Shown here one piece after another: positions 7,715-29,130 of a stretch of 63,086 nucleotides of DNA; the first letter of the stretch is position 1, and each line of letters starts with the position of its first letter. The translations under genes and the position numbers were made by a program. Below the pieces are notes generated by a model. The model had not been told where the DNA came from. It was given only the letters and a program-made list of their open reading frames with translations, and made no database searches. This stretch comes from an uncultured Gammaproteobacteria bacterium (GTDB lineage: Bacteria; Patescibacteriota; Patescibacteriia; CAZBFB01). The stretch spans positions 1 to 63,086 of the forward strand of contig CAZBFB010000046.1 in assembly GCA_964491085.1 (NCBI GenBank). The letters are read 5' to 3'.

Positions 7715-8704
7715 TGATTTTTTGCCTTCAGACAAAGATAATCGTGCGATATCCGTTTGTACCATCATTCGTACCAAATCAGGGAAAGCAATCGTGGGAC
7801 TCCAATTGAGTTGGGTACGCGCTTTTGTGGAATCACCGTAATTTGCCCACAGCTCAGCGGGTCTTTTAAATTGACTATCGACACGGACGAACGGTTGCCA
7901 ATTATCTATCCCTACCGATGTAAACGCGATCTCAAGAAAATCTTTTAATGAGTGGGTTTCTCCGGTACATATAATATAATCATCCGGTAGCTTCGCCTGG
8001 AGCATACGCCACATCGCGTCAACATAATCTCCCGCAAATCCCCAGTCCCGTTTTGTGTCGAGATTGCCCAATGTTAGTTCACGGGTCATACCCAGTTTTA
8101 TTTTTGCCACACCGTCTGTAATTTTTCGCGTCACAAATTTTATATTTCTCAACGGACTTTCATGATTAAATGTAATGCCGTTTACGCCGAAGAGTCCATA
8201 ACCTTCTCTGAAATTTTTTACCAACCAATACGCGGCAACTTTTGAAACCGCATAAGGACTCCTTGGGGCAAGGGGTGTTTTTTCCGAGATAGAACCCTCT
8301 TGATTGCCAAACATCTCGCTGCTAGACGCCTGGTAATACTTTGTGTGGGGGGAGAGGTTTTTAATGGCATTTAGCAGGTGAAGGGTTCCCATGGCGTTTA
8401 CTTCCATGGTTAATGCGTTTTGTTCCCACGATGAGGCAACTGAAGACTTAGCTGCCAGATTATAAACTTCAGTGGGCTGTATTTGTGATATGAGTTCGCG
8501 GAGGCCGACACTGTCGGTCATATTGCCAAATACAAATTTGATTCGATCAGTAATGCCGAGGTAATCCGTAGTATAACCGCCATCGGTTTGTTTGCGATGA
8601 GTAAGCCCGTATACGATGTATCCTTTTTCTAAAAGAAATTTTGCCAGGTAAGGGCCATCCTGTCCCTGGATTCCGGTAACGAGCGCAATGTTAGGAGTAG
8701 ACAT
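7706..8704 (-). CDS. gmd: GDP-mannose 4,6-dehydratase (copy 1)
   Basis: ALVTGIQGQDGPYLAKFLLEKGY, YNLAA, SSSEMFG and SPYAVSK. Its 3' end overlaps the convergent GT2 gene by 9 nt. Confidence 0.85.
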   Translation of the reverse strand: MSTPNIALVTGIQGQDGPYLAKFLLEKGYIVYGLTHRKQTDGGYTTDYLGITDRIKFVFGNMTDSVGLRELISQIQPTEVYNLAAKSSVASSWEQNALTMEVNAMGTLHLLNAIKNLSPHTKYYQASSSEMFGNQEGSISEKTPLAPRSPYAVSKVAAYWLVKNFREGYGLFGVNGITFNHESPLRNIKFVTRKITDGVAKIKLGMTRELTLGNLDTKRDWGFAGDYVDAMWRMLQAKLPDDYIICTGETHSLKDFLEIAFTSVGIDNWQPFVRVDSQFKRPAELWANYGDSTKARTQLNWSPTIAFPDLVRMMVQTDIARLSLSEGKKSSL

Positions 8705-9949: not shown

Positions 9950-10540
9950 TTGATAAACCATGGCTCATTGAAAAAAAAGAGGTGCATCTTGGATATTCTA
10001 GCACGCAGTTATACCGAGGACGGCTATCAACCCATTCCGGCGGTACGTCTGTCGGATGACGAATACGGCCAAGGACTCCAGTGTTTCGCGCCGGCGTGTA
10101 GCGATGTGGTGCCGATTGACGTCGAGCGGAAAGTCATTTACCTCGCGCGTCGAGCGGCAAAGCCGATGACGGGGTGGTGGTGGATCGGTGGTCGCATGGC
10201 ACCCGACGATACCAAAGAAGCGGCCGCGGCCAGAAATTTTCAGCGCGAAACGAGATTGGTAATTACTGAAGACCGTCTCAAGTTGGTGGCGGTTTTCGAC
10301 TACCGCTGGAAAGATCGGGCACAGTCGCCGACGGAGATCGGTTGCCACATGGTCGCCTACACTTTCACCGTGGAACTCATGGCGGCAGAGTTGGCGACTC
10401 TTTCCGGCAATCTCGATCAGCAGGAATACGAGGCCGGGACTGGCCTGTCTGCGTTCAATCGCGAGCGACTGGTTGAAGAAAAAGTTTTTCCGGTCATTCT
10501 CGATTTCTACGATCGCGTGTTCCCGGCCGTAGCGGTTTGA
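9950..10540 (+). CDS. Nudix-fold protein, GDP-mannose mannosyl hydrolase (WcaH/NudD)-like, with a degenerate Nudix box
   Basis: KPMTGWWWIGGRMAPDDTKEAAAARNFQRETRL parallels [34 protein letters not shown] of WcaH (recalled from memory). The likelier start is TTG 9989, preceded by AAGAGG at 9977-9982. Confidence 0.45.
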   Translation: MINHGSLKKKRCILDILARSYTEDGYQPIPAVRLSDDEYGQGLQCFAPACSDVVPIDVERKVIYLARRAAKPMTGWWWIGGRMAPDDTKEAAAARNFQRETRLVITEDRLKLVAVFDYRWKDRAQSPTEIGCHMVAYTFTVELMAAELATLSGNLDQQEYEAGTGLSAFNRERLVEEKVFPVILDFYDRVFPAVAV

Positions 10541-10589
10541 TCGGCTAGGTTTTCATCCACCACAACACAAACTGCACAGGAGGAGAGTC

Positions 10590-11240
10590 ATGAAAAGAAT
10601 CGTGGCGTTAGTGGGTGGTCATATCCTCGCGGATACGGCTGGGTTTCGTACCAGCACGTATACTCCGGCCGATCTCGCCAATCCTTACGGGATTTTTGGA
10701 GACAACCTACGGGGAGAAGCTTCGGCAGTGTTGTATCGAGCAGCCCCCGAAAGGACGCAGGTGGTCGTGCTCGGGGGAGTGACACCGCTCCATAAGGAGA
10801 TGCCTGATGCGCCGCATCTTTCGGCCGTTATCAAAGAGGAAATGATCGCGGCGGGAGTGCCGGCATGGGCGATTACCGAAATCGACATGGATCCGGTGTG
10901 CGGGACTTTCAGGCAACTGACGGAGTTGGCCAAGTTTTTGGCACAAACGAGACGTGTTGAAGATGTCCTGATTGTGTCAAACGATTGGCAGCTCCCCCGC
11001 ATAAAGGCCATGATCGTTTTTCGGGATGAGCTCATGCTCTTGAGAAGTCATGAGCCCAGGACGCGGTGTGTGGCGGCGGAAGACGTGCTGGTTGGCACGA
11101 ATCCGGAGCGTTGGTACGACGAAATTTGTGCGGCGTATAACACGCCGGCTGTTCGCGCCACAATTGCCAAGGAACTCAACGGCGCGAAGATGATCGCGGA
11201 CGGGACGTATCAGTTCCCTACGACCCAACCTGCTCGTTAA
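10590..11240 (+). CDS. DUF218 / YdcF-family protein
   Basis: VVVLGG..., AGVPAWAI, and LIVSNDWQLPR (the family's H/Q-x-x-R motif region). A strong AGGAGG lies 6 nt upstream of the ATG. Confidence 0.55.
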   Translation: MKRIVALVGGHILADTAGFRTSTYTPADLANPYGIFGDNLRGEASAVLYRAAPERTQVVVLGGVTPLHKEMPDAPHLSAVIKEEMIAAGVPAWAITEIDMDPVCGTFRQLTELAKFLAQTRRVEDVLIVSNDWQLPRIKAMIVFRDELMLLRSHEPRTRCVAAEDVLVGTNPERWYDEICAAYNTPAVRATIAKELNGAKMIADGTYQFPTTQPAR

Positions 11241-11256
11241 CCAAACGGAGGCGATA

Positions 11257-11745
11257 ATGACCAGAGAAGAATTGGTGGCTTTGCTCCAGGGGATAAATCC
11301 CAGACAGTTCCGGCCGTATGGGACGGTGCTCTTTGAAGCGTTGGCGCGATGGATGCCGCCGGTCGCGTTCGAAATGGTCGCGTTGCGACGCAACGGGGAT
11401 GACGTGGAAGTGTTTATGACCTTGCGCAGACCGGATGAGTCCTATGCCGATCAGTGGCACAGCCCCGGCTCGGTCATGCGCTATGGTGAGCAGGAGGAGG
11501 ATGTGTTCCGGCGATTGGCCGAGAGTGAGTTTGGCACGAATGACTTGGGCCAGCCGGTTCTGGTGGGGGTGTTCAATAACACGACTGAAGAACGCGGACA
11601 CTTCTATTGCCCCGTGTATCTTTGCCAGATCGGCGCCACTTCCATGGGGAGATGGTTCCGAGTGGACGATCTGCCTGCCAACACCGTCAGGCACCATCGC
11701 GAAAAAATTATCCCGATCGCGTTGCGTGCCTTCAACCAGCGCTAG
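11257..11745 (+). CDS. Nudix hydrolase (WcaH-like arrangement)
   Basis: WHSPGSVMRYGEQEEDVFRRLAESEFG approximates the Nudix box GX5EX7REUXEEXGU. GGAGG lies 5 nt upstream of the ATG. Confidence 0.55.
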   Translation: MTREELVALLQGINPRQFRPYGTVLFEALARWMPPVAFEMVALRRNGDDVEVFMTLRRPDESYADQWHSPGSVMRYGEQEEDVFRRLAESEFGTNDLGQPVLVGVFNNTTEERGHFYCPVYLCQIGATSMGRWFRVDDLPANTVRHHREKIIPIALRAFNQR

Positions 11746-11762
11746 TGCTACGCGCTATTTCT

Positions 11763-11800
11763 GAACTCTTTTTTCGCTACGAGCGGAGAAAGAGTTTTTT
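11763..11800. terminator. Rho-independent terminator between convergent genes
   Basis: Stem aactcttt / aaagagtt with an inner cgct/agcg pairing, followed by a T run and attttat. Confidence 0.55.
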
Positions 11801-12380
11801 ATTTTATACCAAAATCATCCGATTCCGGTCGAGTCAGCCAGGCCGCGAGCGATGAGGCGTTGGCGTCTCGGGGAGACAGATTAGGGTTTTCTATCGGCCA
11901 GGTGATGCCGATAGCTGGATCATTCCAGATTATATTTGATTCGCCTAGTGGATTGTAGAGGGCGGTATATTGATACTCAACATCAACCCCGTCGCCTCGA
12001 GTACAAAATCCGCTGGCAAATCCAGGAGGCACAAAAAGCATTTTTTTATTTTTGGAGGAGAGTTCGGTGCTGAACCATTTTTTGCAGGTAGCAGATTTTT
12101 TTCGAATATCAACTGCCACCACAAATGCTTGTCCGGAAATGATTCGGATTAGCTTGCCTAGTGGTTTGTCCCATTGGAAATGTAGTCCTCGTAGTACGCC
12201 CGGTTTAGAAAAGCTGTGATTCGCTTGCACAAAGACGGCATCAATTCCTTGCGCAGCTAGAGCGTCTTGCCGATATATCTCAAGAAAAAATCCGCGCTCA
12301 TCGGCCATGATTTTGGGTTCTATCACGACCAGGCCGTTAAGAGGGGTTGGTGTAATTTGCATCATAGGTAATGAGCGCAA
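11799..12380 (-). CDS. rfbC: dTDP-4-dehydrorhamnose 3,5-epimerase
   Basis: ERGFFLEIYR, GVLRGLHFQ, VAVDIRK and PPGFASGF motifs. The start may instead be the ATG at 12365 or 12362. Confidence 0.85.
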   Translation of the reverse strand: MRSLPMMQITPTPLNGLVVIEPKIMADERGFFLEIYRQDALAAQGIDAVFVQANHSFSKPGVLRGLHFQWDKPLGKLIRIISGQAFVVAVDIRKKSATCKKWFSTELSSKNKKMLFVPPGFASGFCTRGDGVDVEYQYTALYNPLGESNIIWNDPAIGITWPIENPNLSPRDANASSLAAWLTRPESDDFGIK

Positions 12381-12383
12381 GCA

Positions 12384-13457
12384 TTACGAGCTGGGATGCG
12401 CGCGATACCAGTTAATGGTTGCTTCTAGACCTTGAGGCACATCATGCGCCGGCCGCCAGGTAAAATGTGAAAAGGTTTTAGTCATATCTGCTTGCCAAGC
12501 ATCACTATCATAGGCAACCGAATGGAAACTACCCCATTGCATTGGGCTGGTTGATTTTGTTAAATGCAGAGTTGTCTTTACGACTTCCGCCAGCGTTGTT
12601 TTTGTGCCCGTTCCCACCTGGAAAATTTCGCCAGGATAGTGGGCCGCTTTTGTCATTGCTTCCATGTATATATCAACGATATCTTCAACAAAAATAAAAT
12701 CGCGGGCGATGGTTGGTCTGGTTAGTGACACGGCTTCACCCCGGAGCGCATGTACGATCAGTTCATACACCAGCCGTCCGCGTTCCATGGCCGGTCCGTA
12801 GGGACTAAAAATACGGAAAGTAATAATCGGTTTTTTTTCTTGACGCGCCAGCGCTTGTCCATAAAGTGTCGAGGCCAGTTTAGTGATGCTATAGACCTCT
12901 CCCGGCTCACACCGATCCGTTTCTCGAACCGGATGATCTTGTACGCCGTACTCCAGAAAACTACCGGTGTTTATAAAAAATTTATAATCAATTTCCTGTA
13001 GGGCGCGCAACAGATTGGCCGTACCTAAAAAATTTACTCGCATCAGATCATCGTCTGGGGCATTGATCCCGCTTTTGATGTTTGATGCGGCCAAATGAAA
13101 CACGCCGCTAGGTTGTAGATCGCGTACTAATTTTTCAATCCCCAGGATATCAGTGAGGTCGCCATAACAGCACTGCACATGAGGCAGGAGGTCCGTAATC
13201 CGCCATGTATCTGTTGAATGTTTTAACAGGATCGCGACCGGACAGTTAGCACCGACGAGTCGACGGAGTAGAGCCGAGCCCATGAAACCAGCGGCGCCAG
13301 TTATAAAGATAGGTTGTGCGGCTGTAATCACAAAGTATGGCGTAAATGATTTATTATTTATACAGGTAAATATAGGTAGGGTCAAGTTAGGTTGTGCATA
13401 TTTGGTATGTTGCCAATGGTAATAATGGTGTGCTATAGTTTTTTTAATTCTTAACAT
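12384..13457 (-). CDS. NAD-dependent epimerase/dehydratase (extended SDR)
   Basis: FITGAAGFMGSAL and YSITK catalytic motifs. The roughly 45-aa N-terminal extension looks non-native; a GTG at 13331 just before the Rossmann motif is a plausible true start. Confidence 0.75.
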   Translation of the reverse strand: MLRIKKTIAHHYYHWQHTKYAQPNLTLPIFTCINNKSFTPYFVITAAQPIFITGAAGFMGSALLRRLVGANCPVAILLKHSTDTWRITDLLPHVQCCYGDLTDILGIEKLVRDLQPSGVFHLAASNIKSGINAPDDDLMRVNFLGTANLLRALQEIDYKFFINTGSFLEYGVQDHPVRETDRCEPGEVYSITKLASTLYGQALARQEKKPIITFRIFSPYGPAMERGRLVYELIVHALRGEAVSLTRPTIARDFIFVEDIVDIYMEAMTKAAHYPGEIFQVGTGTKTTLAEVVKTTLHLTKSTSPMQWGSFHSVAYDSDAWQADMTKTFSHFTWRPAHDVPQGLEATINWYRAHPSS

Positions 13458-13478
13458 TTAAGTAGAGTTTATAGGGAT

Positions 13479-14531
13479 ATGATTATCAACAGTGATGTAG
13501 AAAAAAAAGAGCAAGAGTATTTTTGGAAGAACAGACGTGTACTTATTACTGGCGCCAATGGTTTTCTGGCTAGTTGGGTGACTAAAGAATTGCTTGGTTA
13601 TGGCGCGCATATTGTTTCTTTGGTATTTGCCAAGAATCCGCTCTCTATTTTTGAGCAGGAACGTTTAGATAAAACCACCGAAACTATTTATGGCGATGTG
13701 CTGGATTTTGCGTTGCTAAAACGTATGATTGAGACCTATAAAATCCAAACCGTGTTTCATCTTGGCGCTCAGCCAATTTGCGCGGCCGCCGAAGCTGATC
13801 CGCTGACAACACTCGATATCAATATTAAAGGGACCTATCATGTACTGGAAGCGGTGCGGCAGGTTTCTCCGACCACGCATGTTTTAGTGGCTTCTTCTGA
13901 TAAGGCCTATGGTATTCACGAACAGTTGCCCTATGAAGAGCACTATCCCTTACACGGAGAGTATCCATATGAAGTGTCAAAAACATGCGCTGATTTAGTC
14001 AGTATGATGTATTGGCATACCTATAAGATTCCGGTTTGTGTAGTGCGTTGCGGTAATTTTTATGGCGGTGGGGATGCGCATTTTTCACGTTTGATACCCA
14101 ACACAATTAAATGTGCCTACTATAATAATCCCCCACTCCTTATTAGAAATGATTTACGGGATTATCTTTATGTTGAAGATGCTGCGCGGGGCTATGTATT
14201 GCTGGCTGAAAAAATGGCACGCGGCGCGGTATTAGGTGAGGCTTTTAATTTTGGCACCGAACAACCGCGCACGGTGGTAGATGTGATGGAAACGATCTTA
14301 CGTTTGATGGGTAAGCCACATTTACGGCCCCAGATTTCAGACAAGCCACGACTGGGAATTCCTAGCCAGTATCTTTCTTATAAGAAAGCCAAGCAGTTTT
14401 TGGGGTGGGAGCCACTAGTTTCATTTGAAGACGGTTTACAAAAAACGATTGCTTGGTATAGCGATTATTTTAATAAAGGAGTGCCAGCATCTTTACCGGT
14501 ATTTAGTATTCATCATCAGGACCTCGTATGA
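13479..14531 (+). CDS. NDP-hexose (CDP-glucose-type) 4,6-dehydratase, module 1
   Basis: FWKNRRVLITGANGF N-terminus typical of RfbG-like enzymes; SSDKAYG, YPYEVSK. It is collinear with the ORF at 17885..18859. Confidence 0.7.
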   Translation: MIINSDVEKKEQEYFWKNRRVLITGANGFLASWVTKELLGYGAHIVSLVFAKNPLSIFEQERLDKTTETIYGDVLDFALLKRMIETYKIQTVFHLGAQPICAAAEADPLTTLDINIKGTYHVLEAVRQVSPTTHVLVASSDKAYGIHEQLPYEEHYPLHGEYPYEVSKTCADLVSMMYWHTYKIPVCVVRCGNFYGGGDAHFSRLIPNTIKCAYYNNPPLLIRNDLRDYLYVEDAARGYVLLAEKMARGAVLGEAFNFGTEQPRTVVDVMETILRLMGKPHLRPQISDKPRLGIPSQYLSYKKAKQFLGWEPLVSFEDGLQKTIAWYSDYFNKGVPASLPVFSIHHQDLV

Positions 14532-15763
14532 AAAATAAAAAAAGCAAAGTCAGTCAGCAAACGATGCGCGTAAGTTATGCTAAGGCGGTGTTTGGTAAAG
14601 AAGAAATTGAGAGTGTAAACAAAGTACTTTCTACGCCGATGATTGTGGCCGGGCCTTATGTGAAAGAGTTTCAACAAAAAGTAGCCGGACTGTTTGCTAA
14701 AAGTTATGGAGTAATGGTGAATTCTGGTTCTTCGGCCAATCTTATTGCCTTCGAATTATTAAGATTACCAGCCGGATCAGAGGTTATTACCCCGGCGCTT
14801 ACCTTTAGCACTACCGTGGCGCCGATTTTACAGAAAGGATTAACTCCGGTACTAGCCGATGTGGACGAAGGTACTTATCAAATAAATATAGATCAGGTCG
14901 AGCAGTTGATTACCAAAAAAACGCGAGCCCTGATGATTCCATCTTTGATTGGAAATATACCAGATTATCCACGGTTGCGCCGAATTGCTAACAAGCATAA
15001 GCTGTATCTCATTGAGGATTCGTGCGATACTTTAGGACCGACCATTGCGGGAAAATCTACCGGGGTATATTCCGATATCTCAACGACCAGTTTTTATGGA
15101 TCGCATATGATTACTGCTGGGGGAAGCGGGGGAGTGATTTCCGTAAATAATAAGGCCTGGTATGAGCGAGCGATGATGTTGGTGGGGTGGGGGCGTTCCT
15201 CGGCAAAAAACGAGACGGAAAATCCGGCCGAGCGTTTCAATGTTTCGCTGTATGGAGTGCCTTACGATCGTAAATTTATTTTTGAAGAGATCGGATATAA
15301 TTTTCAATCAACCGATATTAATGCCGCGTTTGGTCTGGCGCAGTTGAATCGGTTGAAAGAATTTTCCAATCGCCGGAAAAGTAACTTTCGCACCTTGCTG
15401 GCTTTTTTTAAACGTTATGAGCAATTTTTTATTTTACCAAAACAAAATCCTTTGGCCGAAACTCCCTGGTTGGCATTTCCGCTTACTTTAAAAGAGGGAG
15501 CGCCGTTTACGCGCATTGATTTTGTGAAATATCTCGAAGGATGCAACATACAAACCCGGCCAATTTTTACCGGCAATATCCGGCGGCAACCCGCTTATCG
15601 GTCTAGCGCTCTGAAGACCCGGCGGGAAGGTTATCCGGTAGCTGATTATATTATGCGCCATGCTTTGCTGATTGGCTGTCATCAAGGTATGGGTGAACCG
15701 GAAATTAACTATATAAAAGAAGCGTGTCTTAATTTTTTTAAACGACTAAAACGTGCACGATAA
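14528..15763 (+). CDS. DegT/RfbH-family PLP/PMP enzyme with His at the catalytic Lys position (sugar 3-dehydratase-like), module 1
   Basis: SFYGSHMITAGGSGG (His where aminotransferases have Lys). YDRKFIFEEIGYNFQSTDINAAFGLAQLNRL resembles RfbH. There are no Cys residues in the GWGRSSAKNETENPAERF segment. Confidence 0.7.
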   Translation: MKNKKSKVSQQTMRVSYAKAVFGKEEIESVNKVLSTPMIVAGPYVKEFQQKVAGLFAKSYGVMVNSGSSANLIAFELLRLPAGSEVITPALTFSTTVAPILQKGLTPVLADVDEGTYQINIDQVEQLITKKTRALMIPSLIGNIPDYPRLRRIANKHKLYLIEDSCDTLGPTIAGKSTGVYSDISTTSFYGSHMITAGGSGGVISVNNKAWYERAMMLVGWGRSSAKNETENPAERFNVSLYGVPYDRKFIFEEIGYNFQSTDINAAFGLAQLNRLKEFSNRRKSNFRTLLAFFKRYEQFFILPKQNPLAETPWLAFPLTLKEGAPFTRIDFVKYLEGCNIQTRPIFTGNIRRQPAYRSSALKTRREGYPVADYIMRHALLIGCHQGMGEPEINYIKEACLNFFKRLKRAR

Positions 15764-15776
15764 TATCGGGACAGTT

Positions 15777-16342
15777 ATGCGTTCCGTCGACATTTTGATT
15801 ACCGGCATTACCGGGTTTATTGGTCAGCATTTAGCCAATGTTTTGCAGGCCCAAGGCGCCAATGTTACCGGTATTACGAGCCAGTCAGATAAGGCGTCTC
15901 GCGGGGTTGCTTGTATTGATTTACGTGACCATGCCCGTCTTCGTGAACATATTCAAACCATTCGTCCCGCGATTATTTTTCATTTAGGAGCGCATGTGGC
16001 TCTTGATAGGAACTACGAGACCGCGCGTAGTTGTGTGGAAGCCAATATTCAAGGGACGTTTAATTTACTCGATGCCGTTACTTCTTTGTCAGCTACGGTT
16101 AAACGCGTTGTGTTTTTAAGTACGGAAGAAGTGTACGGTAGCAGTCCGATACCGTATCAAGAAGATCAGCCAGTATTTCCGCTATCAAGTATGGTGCGAT
16201 TCCAGAACGGATTGGCGAGGCGGCTGTTTGGCAGTCGGACATTACCAAAGCTAATAAATTATTGCGGTGGACGCCTTTAATCTCTTTGACAGACGGTCTT
16301 ACAAAAACGATTGCCTATTATCGAGAGGCGCTCTTAACATGA
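15777..16342 (+). pseudogene. Decayed SDR epimerase/dehydratase gene with an internal deletion and frameshift
   Basis: The N-terminal roughly 140 aa (ITGITGFIGQHL ... EDQPVFPLS) are in one frame. The C-terminal tail (IPERIGEAAVWQSDITKANKLLRWTPLISLTDGLTKTIAYYREAL*) is in another frame. The roughly 130 aa catalytic middle is missing. Confidence 0.75.
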
Positions 16343-16349
16343 AGATATT

Positions 16350-17162
16350 ATGAGTTTACTGGTGACGGTGGTGGTGCCCACTTGTAATTCAGCCCGATTT
16401 TTGGAACGCTGTCTGGCGAGCATTAAGAATCAGACGTATTCTCATATTGAATTGATTGTGGTTGACGAGTATAGTGTTGATGCTACGCTTGCGATCGCCA
16501 AACGATATGCTAGCGCGATATATTCCGGCGGACCAGAGCGCAGTATTAAAAGAAACATCGGGATTGAACAGGCCAAAGGCGAGCTCGTGTTTATTATTGA
16601 TTCCGACATGGTACTTAGTTCTTTGGCAGTGGCGGAAGGCGTTGCGGCGATGAAGGACGAGTCAGTTGGCGGGGTTGTGATGCCGGAAATTTCTCAAGGC
16701 GAAGGCTTTTGGGCGCGTTGCATTACCCTTGATCGGGCGCTTCGATTTTGTGGTAATACACCTACCATTGGTGAAGCCGCGCGGTGTTTTCGTAAAGCCG
16801 AAGTTAAAAAAATAGGCGGGTATGATCCGGAGATAGTTGGTGCCGAAGATTGGGATTTGCACAACCGCATGGTACGCTTTGGACATTTTGTAAAAATTAA
16901 AGCGCCCATATACCATCAGGAAGGACGGGTATCACTTTACAAACGAATTAAGAAAAAGTATTATTACAGCCGATCGTTTCGTATCTATCTGAAACGATAT
17001 CCTAGGATTGCCGCGCTACAATTTTCTCCATTTAAGTGGGCGTATATTCGCGGCTTCTGTAGGGTTTTTAGACACCCCGCGCTGGGGATTGGCCTGATTA
17101 TTCTTAAGGGTGGAGAAGCGGTTGCTGGATTTGCGGGGTTGGTATTTTATCGTAAAGGATAA
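16350..17162 (+). CDS. GT2-family glycosyltransferase
   Basis: VVVPTCNSARFLERCLASIKNQTY, VVDEYSVD and IIDSDM motifs. Confidence 0.8.
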   Translation: MSLLVTVVVPTCNSARFLERCLASIKNQTYSHIELIVVDEYSVDATLAIAKRYASAIYSGGPERSIKRNIGIEQAKGELVFIIDSDMVLSSLAVAEGVAAMKDESVGGVVMPEISQGEGFWARCITLDRALRFCGNTPTIGEAARCFRKAEVKKIGGYDPEIVGAEDWDLHNRMVRFGHFVKIKAPIYHQEGRVSLYKRIKKKYYYSRSFRIYLKRYPRIAALQFSPFKWAYIRGFCRVFRHPALGIGLIILKGGEAVAGFAGLVFYRKG

Positions 17163-17181
17163 TTGGTATTAACAATTTGGT

Positions 17182-17910
17182 ATGCACGCAGTAATTTTGT
17201 GTGGCGGGAAAGGTACCCGTTTACGGGAATACACGGAAACAATCCCTAAACCACTGGTGGAAATTGGGGGCAAACCAATTATTTGGCATCTCATGAAATA
17301 TTACGCCCATTTTGGTGTGCGTGATTTTATTATTTGTACCGGGTATTTGCCAGACAAGTTTACGGAGTATTTTTCTCAACCCCATGAATTTCATAGTGTT
17401 ACTTGTATCAATACCGGCGTGGATACTTTGAAAAGTCAGCGCATCAAACAAATTCAGCCGCTCATTCCAGCCGGTCAGGATTTTTTTGTGGCCTATGGTG
17501 ATGATCTATCTGATGTGCCACTGCCGGAGTTACTTGATTTTCATAGCCACCATGATACGATAGCAACTTTGGTGGCAGTACAGCCCAAGAGTCAATATGG
17601 TATATTACAATTTTCAGGGCCAAAGGTTGGTAAATTTATAGAAAAACCAGTGCTGGAGCACTGGATGAATGGCGGATTTTTTATATTTAAATACGAAATA
17701 TTTAATCATTTGCACTATGGAGAATTGGAACAGGTAGTTTTGCCGAAATTGGCAGAAACAGGACAGGTGGCGGCTTATCGGCACAGCGGATTTTGGAAAT
17801 CAATGAATACGTTTCAGGACGCTCTTGAATTAAATGAGCTTCATGCTAATAATCAAGCGGCTTGGAAGATATGGGACAATTCCTATGAACATCAATTTTT
17901 GGCAAAATAA
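17182..17910 (+). CDS. rfbF: Glucose-1-phosphate cytidylyltransferase
   Basis: AVILCGGKGTRLREYTETIPKPLVEIGGKPIIWH N-terminus and the GGFFIF motif. Confidence 0.85.
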   Translation: MHAVILCGGKGTRLREYTETIPKPLVEIGGKPIIWHLMKYYAHFGVRDFIICTGYLPDKFTEYFSQPHEFHSVTCINTGVDTLKSQRIKQIQPLIPAGQDFFVAYGDDLSDVPLPELLDFHSHHDTIATLVAVQPKSQYGILQFSGPKVGKFIEKPVLEHWMNGGFFIFKYEIFNHLHYGELEQVVLPKLAETGQVAAYRHSGFWKSMNTFQDALELNELHANNQAAWKIWDNSYEHQFLAK

Positions 17911-18859
17911 AAATGTGCTGGTGACTGGCGGTACCGGATTTGTGGGAGCGGCGGCGGCCGAAGCGCTTGTTAACGCCGGCGCGCACACCGTTATCTTGGA
18001 ACGCGATCAGCCGCAGGCCAATGTGGCTAATGCGCGCGGATTGCGAGAGCGAGCGACATTTGTACGCGGAGATTTGACCGACCCCGGTCTTTTTCCGCGC
18101 ATTATTAATGAGTACTCGATAGATACTGTATTCCATATTGCCGCGCAGGCCATCGTGGGCGTAGCCAATCGTTCACCGCTGGCTACATTCGAATCAAATA
18201 TTCGGGGGACCTGGAACCTGCTTGAAGCGTGTCGTACGTCATCCTCAATAAAAAGAGTGGTAGTGGCTTCCTCTGACAAGGCCTATGGGGAACCAAAGTT
18301 CGTTCCCTATACCGAGGAGCATCCTTTGTTAGGACTGTATCCTTATGATGCTTCTAAGGCGTGTACGGATATTTTGGCTCGTTCCTATGCAACCACCTAC
18401 GGTATGCCGGTGGCTGTGACCCGCTGTTCGAATATTTATGGCGGAGGGGACATGAATTTTAATCGCCTGATTCCGGGTCTTATTTTATCTGTATTAAAAG
18501 GAGAAACGCCGATTATTCGTAGTGATGGTACGCCCCAGCGTGATTATATGTATATTGATGATACGGTCGAGGCCTATCTTATCTTGGCCGAGCAACTAGA
18601 GCGGCCGGAGGTGCGTGGGCAAGCGTTTAATTTTGGGGTCGGGACACCTAAGAGTGTGCTGGAATTGTTTGCAGCCATCATTCGTTTGTGCGGGAAGGAA
18701 GTTCAGCTACATATTTTAAATGAAGCCAAGAATGAAATCCAGGTACAGTATTTGTCTAGTGCTAAGGCAGAACGAGTTTTGGGGTGGAAGCCACGGTATG
18801 AATTGGAGGCAGGACTGCTCAAGACCATTGAGTGGTATAAACAGTATTTGCTTAAGTAA
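17885..18859 (+). CDS. rfbG: CDP-glucose 4,6-dehydratase, module 2
   Basis: MNINFWQNKNVLVTGGTGFVG, SSDKAYG, YPYDASK. The start is taken at ATG 17885, which overlaps the rfbF end by 26 nt. Confidence 0.75.
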   Translation: MNINFWQNKNVLVTGGTGFVGAAAAEALVNAGAHTVILERDQPQANVANARGLRERATFVRGDLTDPGLFPRIINEYSIDTVFHIAAQAIVGVANRSPLATFESNIRGTWNLLEACRTSSSIKRVVVASSDKAYGEPKFVPYTEEHPLLGLYPYDASKACTDILARSYATTYGMPVAVTRCSNIYGGGDMNFNRLIPGLILSVLKGETPIIRSDGTPQRDYMYIDDTVEAYLILAEQLERPEVRGQAFNFGVGTPKSVLELFAAIIRLCGKEVQLHILNEAKNEIQVQYLSSAKAERVLGWKPRYELEAGLLKTIEWYKQYLLK

Positions 18860-18872
18860 TCATTACTACCAT

Positions 18873-20087
18873 ATGCCAACGCGGAAAAAAATTGATCAAC
18901 AAATCGGTGTGGGGTCGGCTCAGATTAGTGATCGCGAAAAACAGTATGTCAATGAAGTATTGAATAGTAATCGTCTTTCGCACGGGAAATTTTTGAGTGC
19001 GTTCGAATCACAATTTAGTGAGCTGCATGGTTGCAAATATGCCATGATGATGAACAGCGGGACCAGCGCGCTGCGTGTGGCCATCGCTTGCTTAAAAGAA
19101 TGCGAAGATTGGCAGGACGGTGATGAGGTGCTGGTTCCGGCTATTACTTTTGTGGCCACTTCTAATGTTGTCATTGACCATGGATTGAGACCGGTTTTTG
19201 TAGACGTTGATTCTCGTACTTATAATATTGACCCGGCAAAAATTGAAGAGAAGATAACGAAGCGTACCCGCGCTATCATGCCGGTGCATCTGTTTGGACA
19301 GCCCTGCGCTATGGATCCGATTATGGAAATTGCCCGTCGCCATAATCTTAAGGTGATTGAGGATTCGTGCGAGACGATGTTTGTTAAGTATAGAGGGAAA
19401 CCGGTTGGCAGTTTTGGCGATATTTCCTGTTTTTCAACTTATGTGGCGCACCTGCTGGTAACTGGTGTTGGTGGACTTGCTCTGACAAACAATGATGAGT
19501 ATGCGGTAGTAATTAAAAGTTTAATGAATCACGGTCGCGATACGATCTATCTGCATATCGATGATGAAAAAAATCTTGATAAACAAGTATTTTTTCAATT
19601 AGTGCAACGGCGTTTCCGCTTTGTGCGTTTGGGGTACAGTTTTCGCGCTACTGAAATGGAAGGCGCCTTGGGTCTGGGACAGCTTGAAATCAAAGATAGC
19701 ATTCTTAAAACTCGGCAAGAAAATGCGCGTTATTTTATTGAGCGACTGAAACCGTATGAACGCTACTTGCAGTTACCTTGGCATCCCGAGGACGTAGAGC
19801 ATGCTTTTATGATGTTTCCGATTGTAGTGCGTGCCGGTGCGCCCTTTACCAAACAAGACCTGATTTTTTTCTTGGAAGAGAACAATATTGAAACTCGAGA
19901 CATGTTGCCACTTTTGAATCAACCCATCTACATCAAACTTTTTGGCGCGCTGGAAGATAAGTATCCGGTTGCCAAATGGATTAATAATAATGGTTTTTAT
20001 ATTGGTTCTCATCAGGGACTGTCTCCAGCAGAGCGTGAGTATATCATCGCCACCTTTATAGAATTTTTACATCATTATGACAGCTAA
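18873..20087 (+). CDS. DegT/DnrJ/EryC1-family enzyme with His at the catalytic Lys position, module 2
   Basis: MMNSGTSAL and EDSCE motifs; [14 protein letters not shown] (His in place of Lys). The start is taken at ATG 18873 (MPTRKK). Confidence 0.7.
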
Positions 20088-21138
20088 CGGAAAAAAAATA
20101 GCGCTCATTACCGGCATCACCGGTCAAGACGGTTCTTATTTGGCTGAATTATTATTGTCGAAAGGTTATCAAGTTAATGGTATTATTAGGCGTTCCAGCT
20201 CATTCAATACGGGTCGGATTGATCATATTTTTCAAGACCCCCACGAACAGGATTATCAATTCCGGCTATGGTATGGAGATTTAGCCGATAGTGGCGCCGT
20301 GATAAAATTATTAGCCAAAACACAACCTGATGAAATTTATAATTTAGCCGCCCAGAGTCATGTGCGGGTTTCGTTTGAAATTCCCGAATATACCGCCAAT
20401 ATTGTGGGACTAGGGACACTTCGTTTACTTGATGCGGTGCATAGTTTGGGTTTGTCAACGAAATTTTACCAAGGATCATCCAGTGAGATGTTTGGCGCAA
20501 CGCCACCCCCGCAAAAAGAGGATTCAATGTTTTTGCCGAGAAGCCCCTACGCGGCGGCGAAGGTGTTTGCTCACCATATGGCTATTAATTATCGTGAAGC
20601 ATACGGCATATTTTCTTGTGCCGGTATTTTATTTAATCACGAAAGTCCGCGGCGAGGTGAAACATTTGTCACAAAAAAAATTACGCGTGCTATTGCGAAA
20701 ATTTTGGCGAAACGGCAGGAGAAACTTTATTTGGGAAATCTTGAGGCGCGCCGTGACTGGGGGTATGCTCCCGAGTATGTGGAAGGAATGTGGCGTATGT
20801 TGCAGCAAGATAAACCAGACGATTATGTGCTTGCAACCGGTGAAGCGCATTCGGTGCAGGAATTTCTGGAGGCGGCCTTTACCGCTGTCGGGCTTGACTG
20901 GAGGATGTATGTAGAAGTTGATCAACGCTATTTCCGTCCGACGGAAGTAGAACATTTAATTGGTAATCCGCGGAAGGCAAAGGAGGTACTCGGGTGGTCG
21001 GCTAAGGTAACATTTAAAGATCTTGTGCAAATCATGTTGATTGATGATCTTAAAAAAGAGGGACTGGATCCCACGATCTACGAACTTCCCGGGCAACACC
21101 CCTTGGCTTCGCGGTTGCACGAGTTAGTGATTTCTTAG
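20077..21138 (+). CDS. gmd: GDP-mannose 4,6-dehydratase (copy 2)
   Basis: [54 protein letters not shown]. Confidence 0.9.
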
Positions 21139-21158: not shown

Positions 21159-22145
21159 ATGTCTACATTTTGGAATAATAAACGAGTATTGGTAACCGGC
21201 GGCGCGGGTTTTATTGGTAGTCATTTAGTGGAACTACTGCTGGCACAGGGTGCACGGGTGCGCGTGCCGGTGCGCACCAGCAATAAGCTCCATTCTTTTC
21301 TTGACGGTGTACATAATCAAGTTGAGTTCATGGCGGCTGATTTGTTGCGGTCTGAAGATTGCGTTCGGGTGTGTCAAGATCAAGACATCGTCATGCAACT
21401 GGCGGCTAAAGTGGGGGGGATAGAATATAATATTGCTCATCCCGGTTCAATTTTTCGAGATAATTTGTTGTTGTATATGAATGTGCTTGAAGCGGCGCGA
21501 GCGGCGGCTGTGGAGCGGTTTCTGGTTGTTAGTTCGGCTTGCGTGTATCCTCGTTTTTGTACGATCCCCACCCCGGAAGAAGAAGGATTTAACGAGCGTC
21601 CGGAACCCACCAACGAAGGATATGGCTGGGCAAAACGCATGGAAGAATTTCTGGCGGAAGCTTATCATCGTGAATATGGAATGAAGCTGGCGATTGCGCG
21701 TCCTTATAATGCCTATGGTCCGCGGGATAATTTTGACCCGGCTTCCTCGCACGTTATTCCAGCGCTTATCCGCCGTATTGTGGCGGGGGAAAATCCACTT
21801 CAGGTGTGGGGTTCAGGCAAGCAAAGCCGTTCGTTTTTATATGTGGAAGATTTTGCGCGCGGTCTTATGGAGATTGCTGAAAAGTATGCCATCGCTGATC
21901 CAATCAATCTCGGCGCCGATGAGGAAATCACCATAGCGGAAACCGTCAAGCTGATTTCCGAGATTTCCGGTATTCGTCCGGCGGTTCATTTTGACACTTC
22001 AAAACCAGAAGGTCAGCCGCGGCGGAAGTGTAACACGAGAAAAGCCAAGGAAAAAATTGGATTTGAAGCCCAGGTATCTTTGCGTGATGGTCTTAAAAAA
22101 ACAATTAATTGGTATATTAATGAACAGCGAATCTCTAAAAGCTAA
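21159..22145 (+). CDS. NAD-dependent epimerase/reductase (extended SDR), possibly a GDP-4-keto-6-deoxyhexose reductase/epimerase
   Basis: VLVTGGAGFIGSHL and YGWAKRMEE (YxxxK). It lies immediately downstream of gmd. Confidence 0.65.
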   Translation: MSTFWNNKRVLVTGGAGFIGSHLVELLLAQGARVRVPVRTSNKLHSFLDGVHNQVEFMAADLLRSEDCVRVCQDQDIVMQLAAKVGGIEYNIAHPGSIFRDNLLLYMNVLEAARAAAVERFLVVSSACVYPRFCTIPTPEEEGFNERPEPTNEGYGWAKRMEEFLAEAYHREYGMKLAIARPYNAYGPRDNFDPASSHVIPALIRRIVAGENPLQVWGSGKQSRSFLYVEDFARGLMEIAEKYAIADPINLGADEEITIAETVKLISEISGIRPAVHFDTSKPEGQPRRKCNTRKAKEKIGFEAQVSLRDGLKKTINWYINEQRISKS

Positions 22146-23384: not shown

Positions 23385-24005
23385 ATGAAAAAACTGATTA
23401 TTTCTCCCCATGTAGATGATGAAGTTTTGGCTTGTGGTGGCATTCTTGATAAGGAGTCATTTGTCTATTATTGCAGTATTGATGAAAGTAAGGTGGCACC
23501 TGATCCGGGGCATCGTCTAGCGGTTCCCGATCGAGAGAAAGAGTTGCGGGATTGCGCTAGTTATCTTCAATTTGATGTGGAAATTAACTATGCCAGCAAG
23601 GTTAATTTTTTAGTGGAGCAGGAAGTGTTGACCAATCTTGAGCGATTGATTAATAGCGTTCGTCCGGAGGCAATTTTTATACCGCATCCCGGATACAATC
23701 AGGATCACCGCACGGTATTTAGTGCGGCGCAAATTGCCTTACGGCCGCATGATAAGAATTTTTTTGTAAAAAAAGTACTGATCTATGAGGGCGTGCACGA
23801 TTTTTTTTGGTCGTATGATATATTTCGGCCTAATTATTTTGTACCGATTGATATTGAGCGTAAATTAAAAGCGTACGCACTTCAACCATCACAAGTTCGG
23901 GGGATGCGCAGTCCTGAGATGTTGCGTGATTTGGCGCGTTTACGCGGCGCCATGAGTAATACGGAATACGCGGAAGCTTTTTCAGTTTTACGCTGGGTAG
24001 AATAA
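23385..24005 (+). CDS. PIG-L / LmbE-family N-acetylglucosaminyl deacetylase
   Basis: LIISPHVDDEVLACGG zinc-binding signature and a later HPGYNQDH. Confidence 0.8.
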   Translation: MKKLIISPHVDDEVLACGGILDKESFVYYCSIDESKVAPDPGHRLAVPDREKELRDCASYLQFDVEINYASKVNFLVEQEVLTNLERLINSVRPEAIFIPHPGYNQDHRTVFSAAQIALRPHDKNFFVKKVLIYEGVHDFFWSYDIFRPNYFVPIDIERKLKAYALQPSQVRGMRSPEMLRDLARLRGAMSNTEYAEAFSVLRWVE

Positions 24006-24035
24006 TCTTGAGAAACCATACAGCAAATAAAATAT

Positions 24036-24986
24036 ATGAAACATATCTTAGTGGTGGGCGGAGCGGGGTATTTGGGCGGGGGGGTAACTGATTTATTAAT
24101 GCATCGTCCGGATTGTGATTTCCGGGTGTATGATAATTTGTTGTATGAAGATTCCTATCGCAAGGATGTTCATTTTATTTATGGCGATGTGCGGGATGAG
24201 AATAAATTATTACCGCATCTGCAGTGGGCTGACTGTGTCATTTGGCTCGCGGCGATCGTAGGCGACGGCGCCTGCACACTTGATCCTGACTTAACGGTGC
24301 AGATAAATCAAAATACAGTCAAGTGGCTGACGGAACATTTTGCTGGTCGGATTATTTTTACTTCTACTTGTAGCGTTTATGGCGCGCAAGCGGGCGAGCT
24401 TGAAGAACAGTCAGTGGTAAATCCTCTCTCGCTTTATGCCGGTACCAAACTAAAAGCCGAAGAATATTTGGCAGACAAAAATGCCTTGACCTTTCGGTTG
24501 GGTACGCTGTTTGGTGTGAGCGACCTGTTTTCGCGTATACGCATGGATTTGGTGGTGAATCTTATGACCGTACGGGCGCATAAGCTGGGAAAAATTAGTG
24601 TATTCGGCGGAGAACAATTCCGGCCGGTACTGAATGTTAAAGACGCGGCGCGAGCCATTGTTGATGCAATTGAATCGCCGCACATCGGGGTCTACAACTT
24701 GCTCAAACAGAATATACGGATGATTGATTTGGCGTATCAAATTCGCATGCATTATCCCGATATTGAGATTGAACGAACCGAAACACCGTTTCAAGATACG
24801 CGTAATTATCGTGTATCATGGGAAAAAGCTAAGAATGTGTTGGGGTTTGTACCGAAACATCCCATTGACAGCGGGATTGAGGATTTGAAGAATTTATTGG
24901 ATAATTCACGCGTAAAAAATCTTGACCATTTACGACACTCTAATCATCTTTTTTTAAAGGAATTATTGACAAAAAAGAGCGAATAA
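24036..24986 (+). CDS. NAD-dependent epimerase/dehydratase (extended SDR)
   Basis: ILVVGGAGYLGG, STCSVYG, SLYAGTK. Confidence 0.75.
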   Translation: MKHILVVGGAGYLGGGVTDLLMHRPDCDFRVYDNLLYEDSYRKDVHFIYGDVRDENKLLPHLQWADCVIWLAAIVGDGACTLDPDLTVQINQNTVKWLTEHFAGRIIFTSTCSVYGAQAGELEEQSVVNPLSLYAGTKLKAEEYLADKNALTFRLGTLFGVSDLFSRIRMDLVVNLMTVRAHKLGKISVFGGEQFRPVLNVKDAARAIVDAIESPHIGVYNLLKQNIRMIDLAYQIRMHYPDIEIERTETPFQDTRNYRVSWEKAKNVLGFVPKHPIDSGIEDLKNLLDNSRVKNLDHLRHSNHLFLKELLTKKSE

Positions 24987-24998
24987 ATTAACTGATAA

Positions 24999-25451
24999 AT
25001 GGAATATAAAATGCCGTTCATTATTCAGGGAGCAGTGGCGGTTGACGATCGTGGCACGGTGCGCTTCGTCAATGATTTTGATTTAAGCCAGGTGAAACGT
25101 TGTTATTTGGTTGATAATTTTTCGGTTGATATGATACGCGCTTTTCATGGTCATCAGCGCGAGGCAAAATATGTGTATGTGGTTTCCGGATCGGCAATTG
25201 TGGCGGCCGTTGAGATGGATGATGTGCACACCCCCAGCAAAACGAATACAGTGCAACGCTTTGTTTTATCAGCCCAAAAACCAACCGTACTATGCATACC
25301 ACCCGGCTACGCCAACGGATTTAAGCCCCTGGAGTCAGGCACAAAAATTATGTTTTTTTCTTCGGCCGGACTTAAGGAATCAGAAGGAGATGATTATCGT
25401 TTTCCCGCTGACTATTGGGGAAGCGAGGTGTGGGCAGTTGAAAATCGTTAA
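24999..25451 (+). CDS. RmlC-like cupin (sugar epimerase / ketoisomerase-like)
   Basis: 150 aa. DDRGTVRFVN, RAFHGHQREAKYVYVVSG and PPGYANGF form a cupin pattern. Confidence 0.5.
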   Translation: MEYKMPFIIQGAVAVDDRGTVRFVNDFDLSQVKRCYLVDNFSVDMIRAFHGHQREAKYVYVVSGSAIVAAVEMDDVHTPSKTNTVQRFVLSAQKPTVLCIPPGYANGFKPLESGTKIMFFSSAGLKESEGDDYRFPADYWGSEVWAVENR

Positions 25452-25454
25452 GAT

Positions 25455-26381
25455 ATGAAAAAAGTTCTTGTACTCGGAGCCAGCGGCATGCTTGGATCTA
25501 TGGTAGTTGATTATTGTGTTCACTCTGGCCGTTACGAGCTCGGTGGTACTTTACGCACACCGGAGCCAGCGCTTGCGGCCAAGTACGGTTCGGTGAATTG
25601 GCAAATATTAGATGCAGAACAAACTAGTGTTAATGAGCTTACCGGAATATTGTCGCCATACCGGCCGCATTACATTATCAACTGTATCGGAGTCATTAAG
25701 CCCTATTGTAAGGACAATGATCCGGTTGGTGTAGCCCGAGCAATTGTGGTAAATGCTCATTTTCCACAAGTACTAGCGAATGCCGCACAGGCAATCGGAG
25801 CTCGCGTTATTCAAATTGCTACGGACTGCGTTTACAGTGGTAAAGAAGGAAACTACACAGAAAGTGCTGCGCATGATGCGCTTGATGTGTACGGAAAAAC
25901 GAAAAGTTTGGGAGAGGTGAGAGCCCCGCATGTTTTACATTTACGAACATCCATCATTGGTCCGGAGCGAAAAGGGAAAGTGAGTTTGTTGGAATGGTTC
26001 CTACAGCAAAAAGACGGAGCCGCGCTCCAAGGATTTATGCATCACGAATGGAATGGAATGACCACCTGGCAATTTGCTCAAGTGTGCAATGACATAATCG
26101 ATAAAGGAGATGCGTATTTTGACCAGCTGACGGCGCTCTCATCCGTACATCATGTCATACTGAATACAACCGTTACAAAATATGAATTGCTCGTTGCCAT
26201 GAAAGAGATATTTGGTATTCCAATTACTATTACGCCGGTCGATGCGGTAGGCGCAAAAGTGTTGCGGACACTGGCCAGCGATTATTATGCGATTACTGCT
26301 AGAGATCAAAGATTGCTGTCCTTAACGCAGGCGCTTCATGAATTACGGAACTATATGTCCATGCGAAATTTTTATGAATGA
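25455..26381 (+). CDS. RmlD-like NDP-4-keto-sugar reductase (SDR)
   Basis: VLVLGASGMLGS, IQIATDCVYSG, YGKTKSLGE. Confidence 0.6.
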   Translation: MKKVLVLGASGMLGSMVVDYCVHSGRYELGGTLRTPEPALAAKYGSVNWQILDAEQTSVNELTGILSPYRPHYIINCIGVIKPYCKDNDPVGVARAIVVNAHFPQVLANAAQAIGARVIQIATDCVYSGKEGNYTESAAHDALDVYGKTKSLGEVRAPHVLHLRTSIIGPERKGKVSLLEWFLQQKDGAALQGFMHHEWNGMTTWQFAQVCNDIIDKGDAYFDQLTALSSVHHVILNTTVTKYELLVAMKEIFGIPITITPVDAVGAKVLRTLASDYYAITARDQRLLSLTQALHELRNYMSMRNFYE

Positions 26382-28208: not shown

Positions 28209-28215
28209 AACGCAT

Positions 28216-29067: not shown

Positions 29068-29130
29068 TATGTGGAGAAAACGGCGACCCGCCGAAACGTT
29101 TTTTGGTGGCAGTCTCTGTAGCTACAGCAT

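Follow-up and report, generated by a model that had tools for sequence, protein, structure and literature searches.

What do two DegT-family enzymes, each with histidine in place of the lysine expected to form the Schiff base, do side by side in one sugar locus? The question is raised by a 63-kb stretch of DNA (hereafter the window, meaning the whole 63,086-nucleotide contig CAZBFB010000046.1, assembly GCA_964491085.1) from an uncultured bacterium of the Candidate Phyla Radiation (CPR), in which an initial annotation saw two modules, each a 4,6-dehydratase of the short-chain dehydrogenase/reductase (SDR) type followed by a DegT-family protein. The open reading frames (ORFs), here called SDR1, DegT1, SDR2, and DegT2, are as described there, except that the true start of DegT2 is 18873 (404 aa, P0121; the database protein begins MPTRKK) rather than that of a longer ORF from 18720. 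The window is chromosomal, carrying genes for LeuRS, KsgA, UvrA, GroEL, and SufBCS; its GroEL is 72–76% identical to those of Uhrbacteria, Buchananbacteria, Magasanikbacteria, Falkowbacteria, and other Patescibacteria, and the same contig region was found again in two other public metagenome runs. Statements below about the absence of a gene hold for the window, not for the whole genome.

We favor, with moderate confidence, the view that the region from 11.8 to 22.1 kb encodes two separate 3,6-dideoxy-sugar routes, each with its own His-type C-3 dehydratase that would depend on pyridoxamine phosphate (PMP) and follow a ColD-style cycle. Sugars of this kind are known mainly from the O-antigens of Gram-negative bacteria (Yersinia, Salmonella, and E. 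coli), and three kinds of sugar 3-dehydratase have been characterized: E1, ColD, and SpnQ (PMC8987622). In the characterized His-type enzymes PMP forms a Schiff base with the sugar, and the catalytic His serves to expel the 3-OH. In E1 and SpnQ a [2Fe-2S] cluster held by four Cys, fed by E3 or by general reductases, then brings about reduction of the intermediate, whereas ColD has no cluster, releases an enamine that is hydrolyzed, and regenerates PMP from glutamate (PMC8987622), and heptose 3-dehydratases of C. jejuni resemble ColD in behavior (PMC10440746). Both His-type PMP-dependent 3-dehydratases and the reductase-free option of ColD are thus already known; what has to be decided is where DegT1 and DegT2 belong among them.

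Both proteins are full-length members of PF01041 (Pfam, E 2.7e-77 for DegT1 and 2.3e-94 for DegT2), and their AlphaFold models, with predicted local distance difference test (pLDDT) scores of 93.6 and 91.9, have the fold type I, aspartate-aminotransferase-like architecture, matching solved DegT-family members with template modeling (TM) scores of 0.82–0.88. In gap-free HMMER alignments, His193 of DegT1 (SFYGSHM) falls on His220 of E1 (SFYPAH220H), or on the Lys when the H220K mutant 3bb8 is aligned; His193 of DegT2 (STYVAHL) likewise matches Lys186 of GDP-perosamine synthase (FFGNK186I) and, in the K186A form of that enzyme, the Ala; an L-INS-i alignment by MAFFT places both His193 residues in one column with residue 188 of ColD, the aligned ColD structure being, according to its PDB title, the H188N mutant. 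We relied on these alignments because the HMMER pairwise alignment to ColD slips by one residue around the His. The histidine is kept in 120/120 of the closest database relatives of DegT1 and likewise in 120/120 of those of DegT2; this invariance and the three agreeing alignments bear out the manual alignment of the initial annotation.

In a neighbor-joining tree of 151 sequences (50 bootstraps, 15 Lys-type aminotransferases), all 133 His-type sequences, including E1 and ColD, form one clade with none of the 15 Lys-type sequences inside it (49/50), and a smaller tree gives the same clade 99/100. Both trees are distance-based, their outgroups are limited, and support is weak at the deep nodes inside the His clade. 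The His clade falls into two groups. One, the G[VI]GG group, numbers about 90 sequences, DegT2 among them, and none of its members is solved or characterized; the other comprises E1, the ColD clade, the DegT1 clade, and several Cys-rich lineages. The ColD clade consists of ColD and 7 representatives (8 sequences, 43/50), with both DegT1 and DegT2 outside it; in the smaller tree the cluster-free E1-like clade that contains DegT1 is found 100/100, apart from a Cys-type E1 clade (89%). DegT1 and DegT2, 31.5% identical, thus represent two deep branches of one His-only clade, and the data indicate that most sequenced His-type relatives, labeled "aminotransferase" or "RfbH", lie outside both the E1 and the ColD clades. 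A late gain of the Fe-S site in E1 was the parsimonious reading of the small tree but was not upheld by the larger one, which scatters Cys-rich lineages through the E1/ColD half, with weak deep nodes.

The nearest solved relative of DegT2 is the GDP-perosamine synthase Per of Caulobacter crescentus (3bn1, 3dr4; 222 bits, 35% identity, TM 0.87/0.95), which uses the Gmd product; Per, however, is an aminotransferase with an Asn-Lys dyad, whereas DegT2 has Ala-His and lies in the His-only clade. DegT2 scores 252.3 bits against the NCBIfam RfbH equivalog NF011936, below the cut-off of 423, and has no Cys in the region of the E1 cluster loop. Its family carries the signature STYxAH...GVGG, and an exhaustive HMMER search of 1.84 billion representatives returned 5011 matches at E≤1e-30; by motif, the best 150 of the 5011 divide into 111 with His, 11 with Lys, and 28 outside the motif. 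With ColD of E. coli O55 DegT2 shares the His, a loop free of Fe-S ligands, a Glu after the conserved Cys, and neighbors of the Gmd and Fcl epimerase/reductase type, but it differs in its Ala-His and GVGG motifs and belongs to the other major branch of the His clade.

Gene neighborhoods suggest what DegT2 works with. We assembled 80 metagenome loci with DegT2 relatives at 56–69% identity, together with 2 from assemblies, classified their ORFs by BLAST against the window proteins, and counted neighbors in the 50 loci that extend at least 1.2 kb on either side. A Gmd ortholog (at least 45% identical to the window Gmd) is present in 41/50, directly adjacent to the DegT2 relative in 29 (directly upstream in 24 of these), and accompanied by an Fcl-like gene in 23/50; a gene like SDR1 or SDR2 (at least 40% identity) is found in only 5/50. 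Since Gmd recurs in this way, and the stop of DegT2 overlaps the start of Gmd by 11 bases, the evidence supports the downstream Gmd and Fcl-like genes, not SDR2, as the functional partners of DegT2, and its substrate, judged from synteny and from the nearest structural relative, would be GDP-4-keto-6-deoxymannose. DegT2-type His domains also occur in fusions with an N-terminal SDR (~690–720 aa; P0254, P0258, P0260, P0263), and we count such SDR-DegT2-like fusions in favor of the two-route reading. Further fusions, among P0243 and P0248, join the domain to a family-2 glycosyltransferase (GT2) plus a methyltransferase (808 aa) or to a C-terminal GT4 (799 aa), and other relatives of ~635 aa bear a C-terminal extension of ~240 aa with no Pfam match.

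The strongest competitor, though an unlikely one, is that DegT2 takes CDP-4-keto-6-deoxyglucose from the adjacent RfbF-like protein and SDR2, with Gmd and the Fcl-like protein merely making GDP-fucose. The order in the window is RfbF-SDR2-DegT2, and SDR2 ends 14 bases before DegT2, so that CDP-4-keto-6-deoxyglucose could reach DegT2 as well; moreover, all five genes co-occur in L053, L060, L066, L074, and L081, and similarly in L079, where the SDR matches SDR1 best. In the loci with all five genes, however, the order is Gmd-DegT2-Fcl followed by RfbF-SDR2; the family keeps company with Gmd rather than with SDR1/2-like genes; its nearest solved relative takes a GDP sugar; and the Fcl-like protein (top PDB matches GDP-L-fucose synthases, 180 and 167 bits) falls at 229 bits far short of the GDP-fucose synthase cut-off of 500. 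L053 and L060 have, in one row after Gmd-DegT2-Fcl, the genes RfbF-SDR2 (45%)-SDR-thiamine diphosphate (ThDP) enzyme-E1, and this E1 carries the full WGRDCWCEPGCDNTC motif; in L083 a Cys-type E1 is found on a short contig without RfbF-SDR2. RfbF and SDR2 therefore look like a separate CDP-glucose sub-module, found elsewhere (L053, L060) alongside a canonical Cys-type E1. These three loci are 3/82 of the DegT2-family set, and the view that two such enzymes in one locus are unusual was accordingly overstated.

The L053/L060 row (~12100–19000) runs through RfbF, an RfbG-like SDR, a second SDR, a 585-aa ThDP enzyme, the Cys-type E1, and a GT10 fucosyltransferase-like gene. The ThDP enzyme may resemble YerE of the yersiniose pathway; if that likeness holds, it would imply a branched-chain 3,6-dideoxyhexose in uncultured bacteria.

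DegT1 is closest to E1 (AscC/DdhC/RfbH of Yersinia and Salmonella) but lacks the loop cysteines that hold the E1 cluster. E1 is its nearest solved relative both by sequence (246 bits, against 170 for ColD; 34–35% identity) and by predicted fold (TM 0.88 to 3bcx), and its score against NF011936 is 338.9 bits, again short of the RfbH cut-off. Besides the His, both have a Tyr three positions ahead of it, an Asp following the EDxC Cys, and a WGR...RF loop that is about as long in each, and both have a neighbor resembling CDP-glucose 4,6-dehydratase. The E1 cluster ligands, as Agnihotri and colleagues are said to have reported in 2004, are C193, C251, C253, and C261. Where E1 reads WGRDCYCAPGCDNTC (or WGRDCYCAPGCDNTCKKRF), DegT1 has WGRSSAKNETENPAERF, without a single Cys; the matching segment is Cys-free in 119/120 DegT1 relatives, and the loop from which three of the four ligands come in E1 lacks both Cys and His in the same 119/120 and in 75 of the best 80 relatives on viral contigs. 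An RfbH-like protein devoid of loop cysteines had been proposed from the first reading, and so it proves. Of the E1 cluster cysteines DegT1 keeps only that of EDSCD, the equivalent of the first ligand, which is as conserved in the DegT2 family and is present in cluster-free ColD. The DegT1 clade is further marked by Ser-His in place of the Ala-His of E1 (Ser192-His193 in DegT1; Ser in 108/120 relatives), a one-residue insertion, and AGxGG (AGSGG in DegT1) replacing GEGG. The Ser-His dyad is also that of ColD (S187-H188), but DegT1 and DegT2 are only 27–28% identical to ColD, and the partner of DegT1 is a CDP-type 4,6-dehydratase, not Gmd.

Could DegT1 nevertheless operate as E1 or SpnQ does, binding a redox cofactor through other residues or drawing electrons from a general ferredoxin or flavodoxin encoded outside the window? 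We consider this improbable, somewhat more so than a CDP substrate for DegT2. In its favor are the proximity to E1 and the retention in DegT1 of the EDSCD Cys and two further conserved Cys (its relatives keep three, at 166, 205, and 384). TDP-hexose 3-dehydratases of the SpnQ/UrdQ type are His-type, like DegT1 and DegT2, depend on PMP, as we predict for these two, and have no dedicated E3 gene, but according to their published description they keep the four-Cys [2Fe-2S] motif and need general ferredoxin or flavodoxin reductases (PMC8987622). A Pfam scan that covered nearly all window ORFs of at least 150 aa found no ferredoxin-NADP-reductase or 2Fe-2S ferredoxin domain, and a screen for E3-type ferredoxin and reductase motifs, which had no positive control, found no match in any window ORF of at least 60 aa, in agreement with the earlier remark that no E3-type gene is visible. 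The same screen, however, found no match beside Cys-type E1 genes either, where Pfam recognizes a ThDP enzyme and glycosyltransferases; since Cys-type E1 loci also lack an adjacent E3, its absence here is weak and non-diagnostic evidence: a reductase need not be near. An Fe-S assembly system is moreover present in the window. The emptiness of the three-ligand loop across nearly all relatives, the equal conservation of the EDSCD Cys in proteins without a cluster, and the ColD-type dyad argue against an Fe-S DegT1.

The Suf cluster (45212–49488) encodes a SufC-like ABC ATPase, SufB, and SufS; its SufD-like frame is short and seemingly split into 44 aa (47559–47693) and 166 aa (47702–48202); of the SufBD core, the longer piece covers no more than the C-terminal half.

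The pairing of SDR1 with DegT1 is genuine and conserved. A scan of genome contigs with DegT1 as the sole query recovered nothing but remote homologs (24–33% identity), but close relatives (61–65%) are found in five CPR loci, and in four of these (L012, L177, L179, L180) an SDR1 ortholog (55–58%) lies in the same cassette and, together with a second SDR, directly upstream of the DegT1 ortholog, mostly with a small GT2. Regarding the proposed duplicated modules, then, the first pair stands, whereas the second, SDR2-DegT2, finds no support as a functional module in the related loci; nor are the two modules recent duplicates, given the low identity of DegT1 to DegT2 and that of SDR1 to SDR2 (42.5%). 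Against the CDP-glucose 4,6-dehydratase model TIGR02622, SDR1 (205 bits) and SDR2 (200 bits) both stay below the cut-off of 278. The best PDB match of SDR1 is CDP-glucose 4,6-dehydratase (1wvg, 155 bits), whose TSDKCY aligns with SSDKAY of SDR1, an Asp-Lys pair; SSDKAYG is present in both SDRs, although for SDR2 the match to an archaeal dTDP-glucose 4,6-dehydratase (2hun, 148 bits) is slightly better than that to 1wvg (132 bits). Because SDR1 is closest to CDP-glucose 4,6-dehydratase and has the Asp-Lys pair, the window contains an RfbF-like gene, and DegT1 resembles E1, the substrate of DegT1 would be a 4-keto-6-deoxyglucose nucleotide, with CDP the probable nucleotide.

A word-indexed database search gave at least 8000 matches to the DegT1 clade, and at least 592 relatives were confirmed on viral contigs. 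The notion that the cluster-free E1-like clade is generally GDP-specific was discarded: a Gmd-like gene occurs in just 10/63 viral-contig loci and adjoins the DegT1 relative in 1. Upstream of the SDR1-DegT1 cassette in one CPR genome (L180, 549–3407) are genes for an NTP-transferase, a GHMP kinase, a SIS isomerase, and a HAD phosphatase; as a set of nucleotide-heptose synthesis genes, they raise the possibility that some cluster-free E1-like members act on heptoses. Among GenBank phages, 82 records carry E1-like His-type genes at 27–35% identity, mostly Synechococcus cyanophages (e.g. S-H68, S-B05, S-CAM7); some are annotated as CDP-4-keto-6-deoxyglucose 3-dehydrase, and some of the viral-contig copies (IMG/VR, L097–L176) are on giant-virus bins.

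A third reading concerns both enzymes: one or the other, or both, might be a PMP-dependent aminotransferase or another catalyst that uses the His, for instance in epimerization. SpnQ has aminotransferase activity in the absence of a reductase (PMC8987622), a bioRxiv analysis finds the sites that discriminate dehydratases from aminotransferases not strictly conserved, and the protein most similar to DegT2 is an aminotransferase. The characterized His-type members, however, are all 3-dehydratases (PMC8987622, PMC10440746), and the Gmd-DegT2-Fcl-like trio parallels Gmd-ColD-ColC of colitose synthesis. As both proteins lie inside the His-only clade with E1 and ColD, a C-3 dehydratase role, proposed from the start as deoxygenation rather than amination, is better supported by sequence, and we regard the aminotransferase reading as quite improbable, slightly below an Fe-S-dependent DegT1.

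We infer the activities, cofactor cycles, nucleotide specificities, and final sugars of the two proposed dideoxy-sugar routes from sequence and gene context, as follows. In route A, starting from CDP- or other NDP-glucose, i) the RfbF-like cytidylyltransferase would make the nucleotide sugar; ii) SDR1, perhaps with SDR2, would convert it to the 4-keto-6-deoxy sugar; iii) DegT1 would strip the 3-OH; and iv) the divergently transcribed RmlC-like epimerase and the SDR at 12384–13457 are candidates for the finishing steps, uncertain ones because the SDR directly after DegT1 is a pseudogene. In route B, starting from GDP-mannose, Gmd would yield GDP-4-keto-6-deoxymannose, DegT2 would strip the 3-OH, and the Fcl-like enzyme would epimerize and reduce the product to a colitose-like GDP-3,6-dideoxyhexose. 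In both dehydratases PMP would form a Schiff base with the 4-keto group, His193 would take the C4' proton, and the 3-OH would depart; because neither protein has the E1 cluster ligands, we propose that the enamine is set free and hydrolyzed to a 3-deoxy-4-keto sugar and ammonia, with pyridoxal phosphate returned to PMP by transamination from glutamate, as in ColD, in place of the [2Fe-2S]/E3 reduction of E1. For DegT1, E1-like without the ligands and with no E3 in the window, this reductase-free cycle is the economical reading. That route A is a decaying remnant, SDR1 and DegT1 yielding no finished sugar here, is the least probable alternative of all: the SDR gene at 15753–16342 carries an internal deletion and a frameshift, and two other samples show it in that condition too, but SDR1 and DegT1 are intact, translationally overlapping, and keep all family-invariant residues, and neighboring genes offer other SDRs and an epimerase.

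We wish to be explicit about what weighs against two ColD-style routes, apart from the residual cysteines of DegT1, the Suf genes, and the closeness of SDR2 to DegT2 already mentioned: i) a ferredoxin or reductase may be encoded beyond the 63 kb; ii) no nucleotidyltransferase adjoins SDR1-DegT1 in the CPR cassettes, which makes "CDP" insecure for route A; iii) DegT2 is no nearer to ColD (28% identity) than to E1 (30%), its dyad (Ala192-His193) is unlike the Ser-His of ColD, and it has GVGG where most relatives have GEGG; iv) the trees are all neighbor-joining, with little support for the deep nodes of the His clade; and v) both clades are made up of biochemically uncharacterized proteins.

Neither family is rare or peculiar to this genome: each has thousands of members already sequenced, in CPR bacteria, DPANN archaea, and viral contigs, under generic or borrowed names such as "RfbH", "NDP-hexose 3,4-dehydratase", "perosamine synthetase", and "aminotransferase". 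In the literature that could be searched, neither the cluster-free clade that dominates the E1-like branch nor a GVGG clade, separate from the ColD clade, that accompanies Gmd in CPR and DPANN genomes is described. We tentatively suggest, with less confidence than for the two routes themselves, that these are two large, biochemically uncharacterized lineages of C-3 dehydratases: an E1-like one, free of cluster and reductase, for CDP- or NDP-glucose-derived sugars, and a "STYxAH...GVGG" one that would be a non-orthologous replacement for ColD and the main colitose-like route in CPR bacteria and DPANN archaea, whose redox metabolism is minimal. If this holds for the E1-like lineage, the electron-transfer chemistry of E1/E3 would be dispensable for that substrate class; were these enzymes to act on CDP sugars, with glutamate as the reductant, 3,6-dideoxyhexoses would become simpler to make enzymatically, because an oxygen-sensitive Fe-S protein and E3 would not be needed, and the finding would bear on the relation of the E1/E3 system to ColD-type chemistry. 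The finding also suggests that 3,6-dideoxy sugars decorate surfaces in ultra-small cells of CPR and DPANN organisms and, likewise, through genes on many viral contigs.

Table 1. Genes between 11.8 and 22.1 kb of the window, with the evidence for each assignment
Feature	Position	Strand	Evidence and remarks
RmlC-like sugar 3,5-epimerase	11799..12380	-	PF00908, E 6.8e-59; last gene of a short minus-strand operon diverging from SDR1
Extended SDR	12384..13457	-	PF01370, E 4e-38; match begins at residue 50
SDR1, NDP-hexose 4,6-dehydratase of CDP-glucose type	13479..14531	+	TIGR02622, 205 bits; PDB 1wvg
DegT1, E1/RfbH-like sugar 3-dehydratase (predicted)	14528..15763	+	PF01041; Ser192-His193; loop without [2Fe-2S] cysteines
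SDR pseudogene	15753..16342	+	Two frames: 15753-16280, N-terminal Rossmann half; C-terminal ~45 aa to 16342
Family-2 glycosyltransferase	16350..17162	+	PF00535, E 1.7e-22
RfbF-like glucose-1-phosphate cytidylyltransferase	17182..17910	+	TIGR02623, 216 bits (cut-off 300 not reached)
SDR2, 4,6-dehydratase-type SDR, RfbG-like paralog of SDR1	17885..18859	+	TIGR02622, 200 bits; TIGR01181, 192 bits
DegT2, His-type enzyme of the STYVAH...GVGG clade, predicted GDP-4-keto-6-deoxymannose 3-dehydratase	18873..20087	+	PF01041
GDP-mannose 4,6-dehydratase (Gmd)	20077..21138	+	TIGR01472, 510 bits (cut-off 415 exceeded)
Fcl/ColC-like GDP-sugar epimerase/reductase	21159..22145	+	NF047922, 229 bits (cut-off 500 not reached)

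From 13479 onward the plus strand is a long, densely packed glycan-biosynthesis operon, in which the stop of SDR1 overlaps the start of DegT1. The RmlC-like epimerase on the opposite strand is a candidate 5-epimerase of the DegT1 branch and the SDR beside it a candidate C-4 ketoreductase, with weak counterparts (27–28% identity) between or beside the SDR1 and DegT1 orthologs in L012, L177, and L180. The N-terminal 48 aa of this SDR, as annotated, are probably untranslated, and the best promoter-like site for SDR1 (13410–13439) lies within its annotated 5' end; a terminator hairpin with a 16-bp stem occupies 11763–11797. Promoter and terminator scans as a whole did no better than chance (28 against 22.4±4 and 15 against 14.6±4). 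The SDR pseudogene has lost its central ~130 aa, including the YxxxK motif, and its Pfam match spans profile positions 1–135 of 240; translation of the second frame ends ...WQSDITKANKLLRWTPLISLTDGLTKTIAYYREALLT*, the canonical C-terminal end, and L013 and L014, from two other metagenome samples, show the gene call truncated in the same way. Small GT2 genes like the one that follows flank the SDR1-DegT1 cassette in L012, L178, L179, and L180 too.

Elsewhere in the window, a second Gmd-type gene at 7706–8704 on the minus strand (PF16363, 377 bits; 45% identical to the Gmd at 20077) adjoins a GT4 glycosyltransferase, and may belong to another GDP-sugar branch or encode a heptose 4,6-dehydratase. 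A GC-rich island at ~10000–12000 (0.557, against 0.42–0.46 nearby), with Nudix ORFs at 9950–10540 and 11257–11745 and a DUF218 ORF at 10590–11240, followed by the hairpin described above, may be a foreign insertion in the sugar cluster. The same operon continues through 23385–36824 with genes for a PIG-L deacetylase, two further SDRs, a small RmlC-like cupin, an RmlD-like reductase, a formyltransferase, an FkbM methyltransferase, a 2-oxoglutarate-Fe(II) oxygenase, more methyltransferases, and at least 7 glycosyltransferases, a sugar-tailoring repertoire that is unusually rich for a CPR bacterium. Beyond it, at 36897–45189, are four consecutive large ORFs (873, 982, 316, and 598 aa) that have no Pfam match even at E 0.01. 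The AT skew there is strongly negative (-0.14 to -0.28), and the products may be large proteins of the membrane or surface that serve the glycan machinery.

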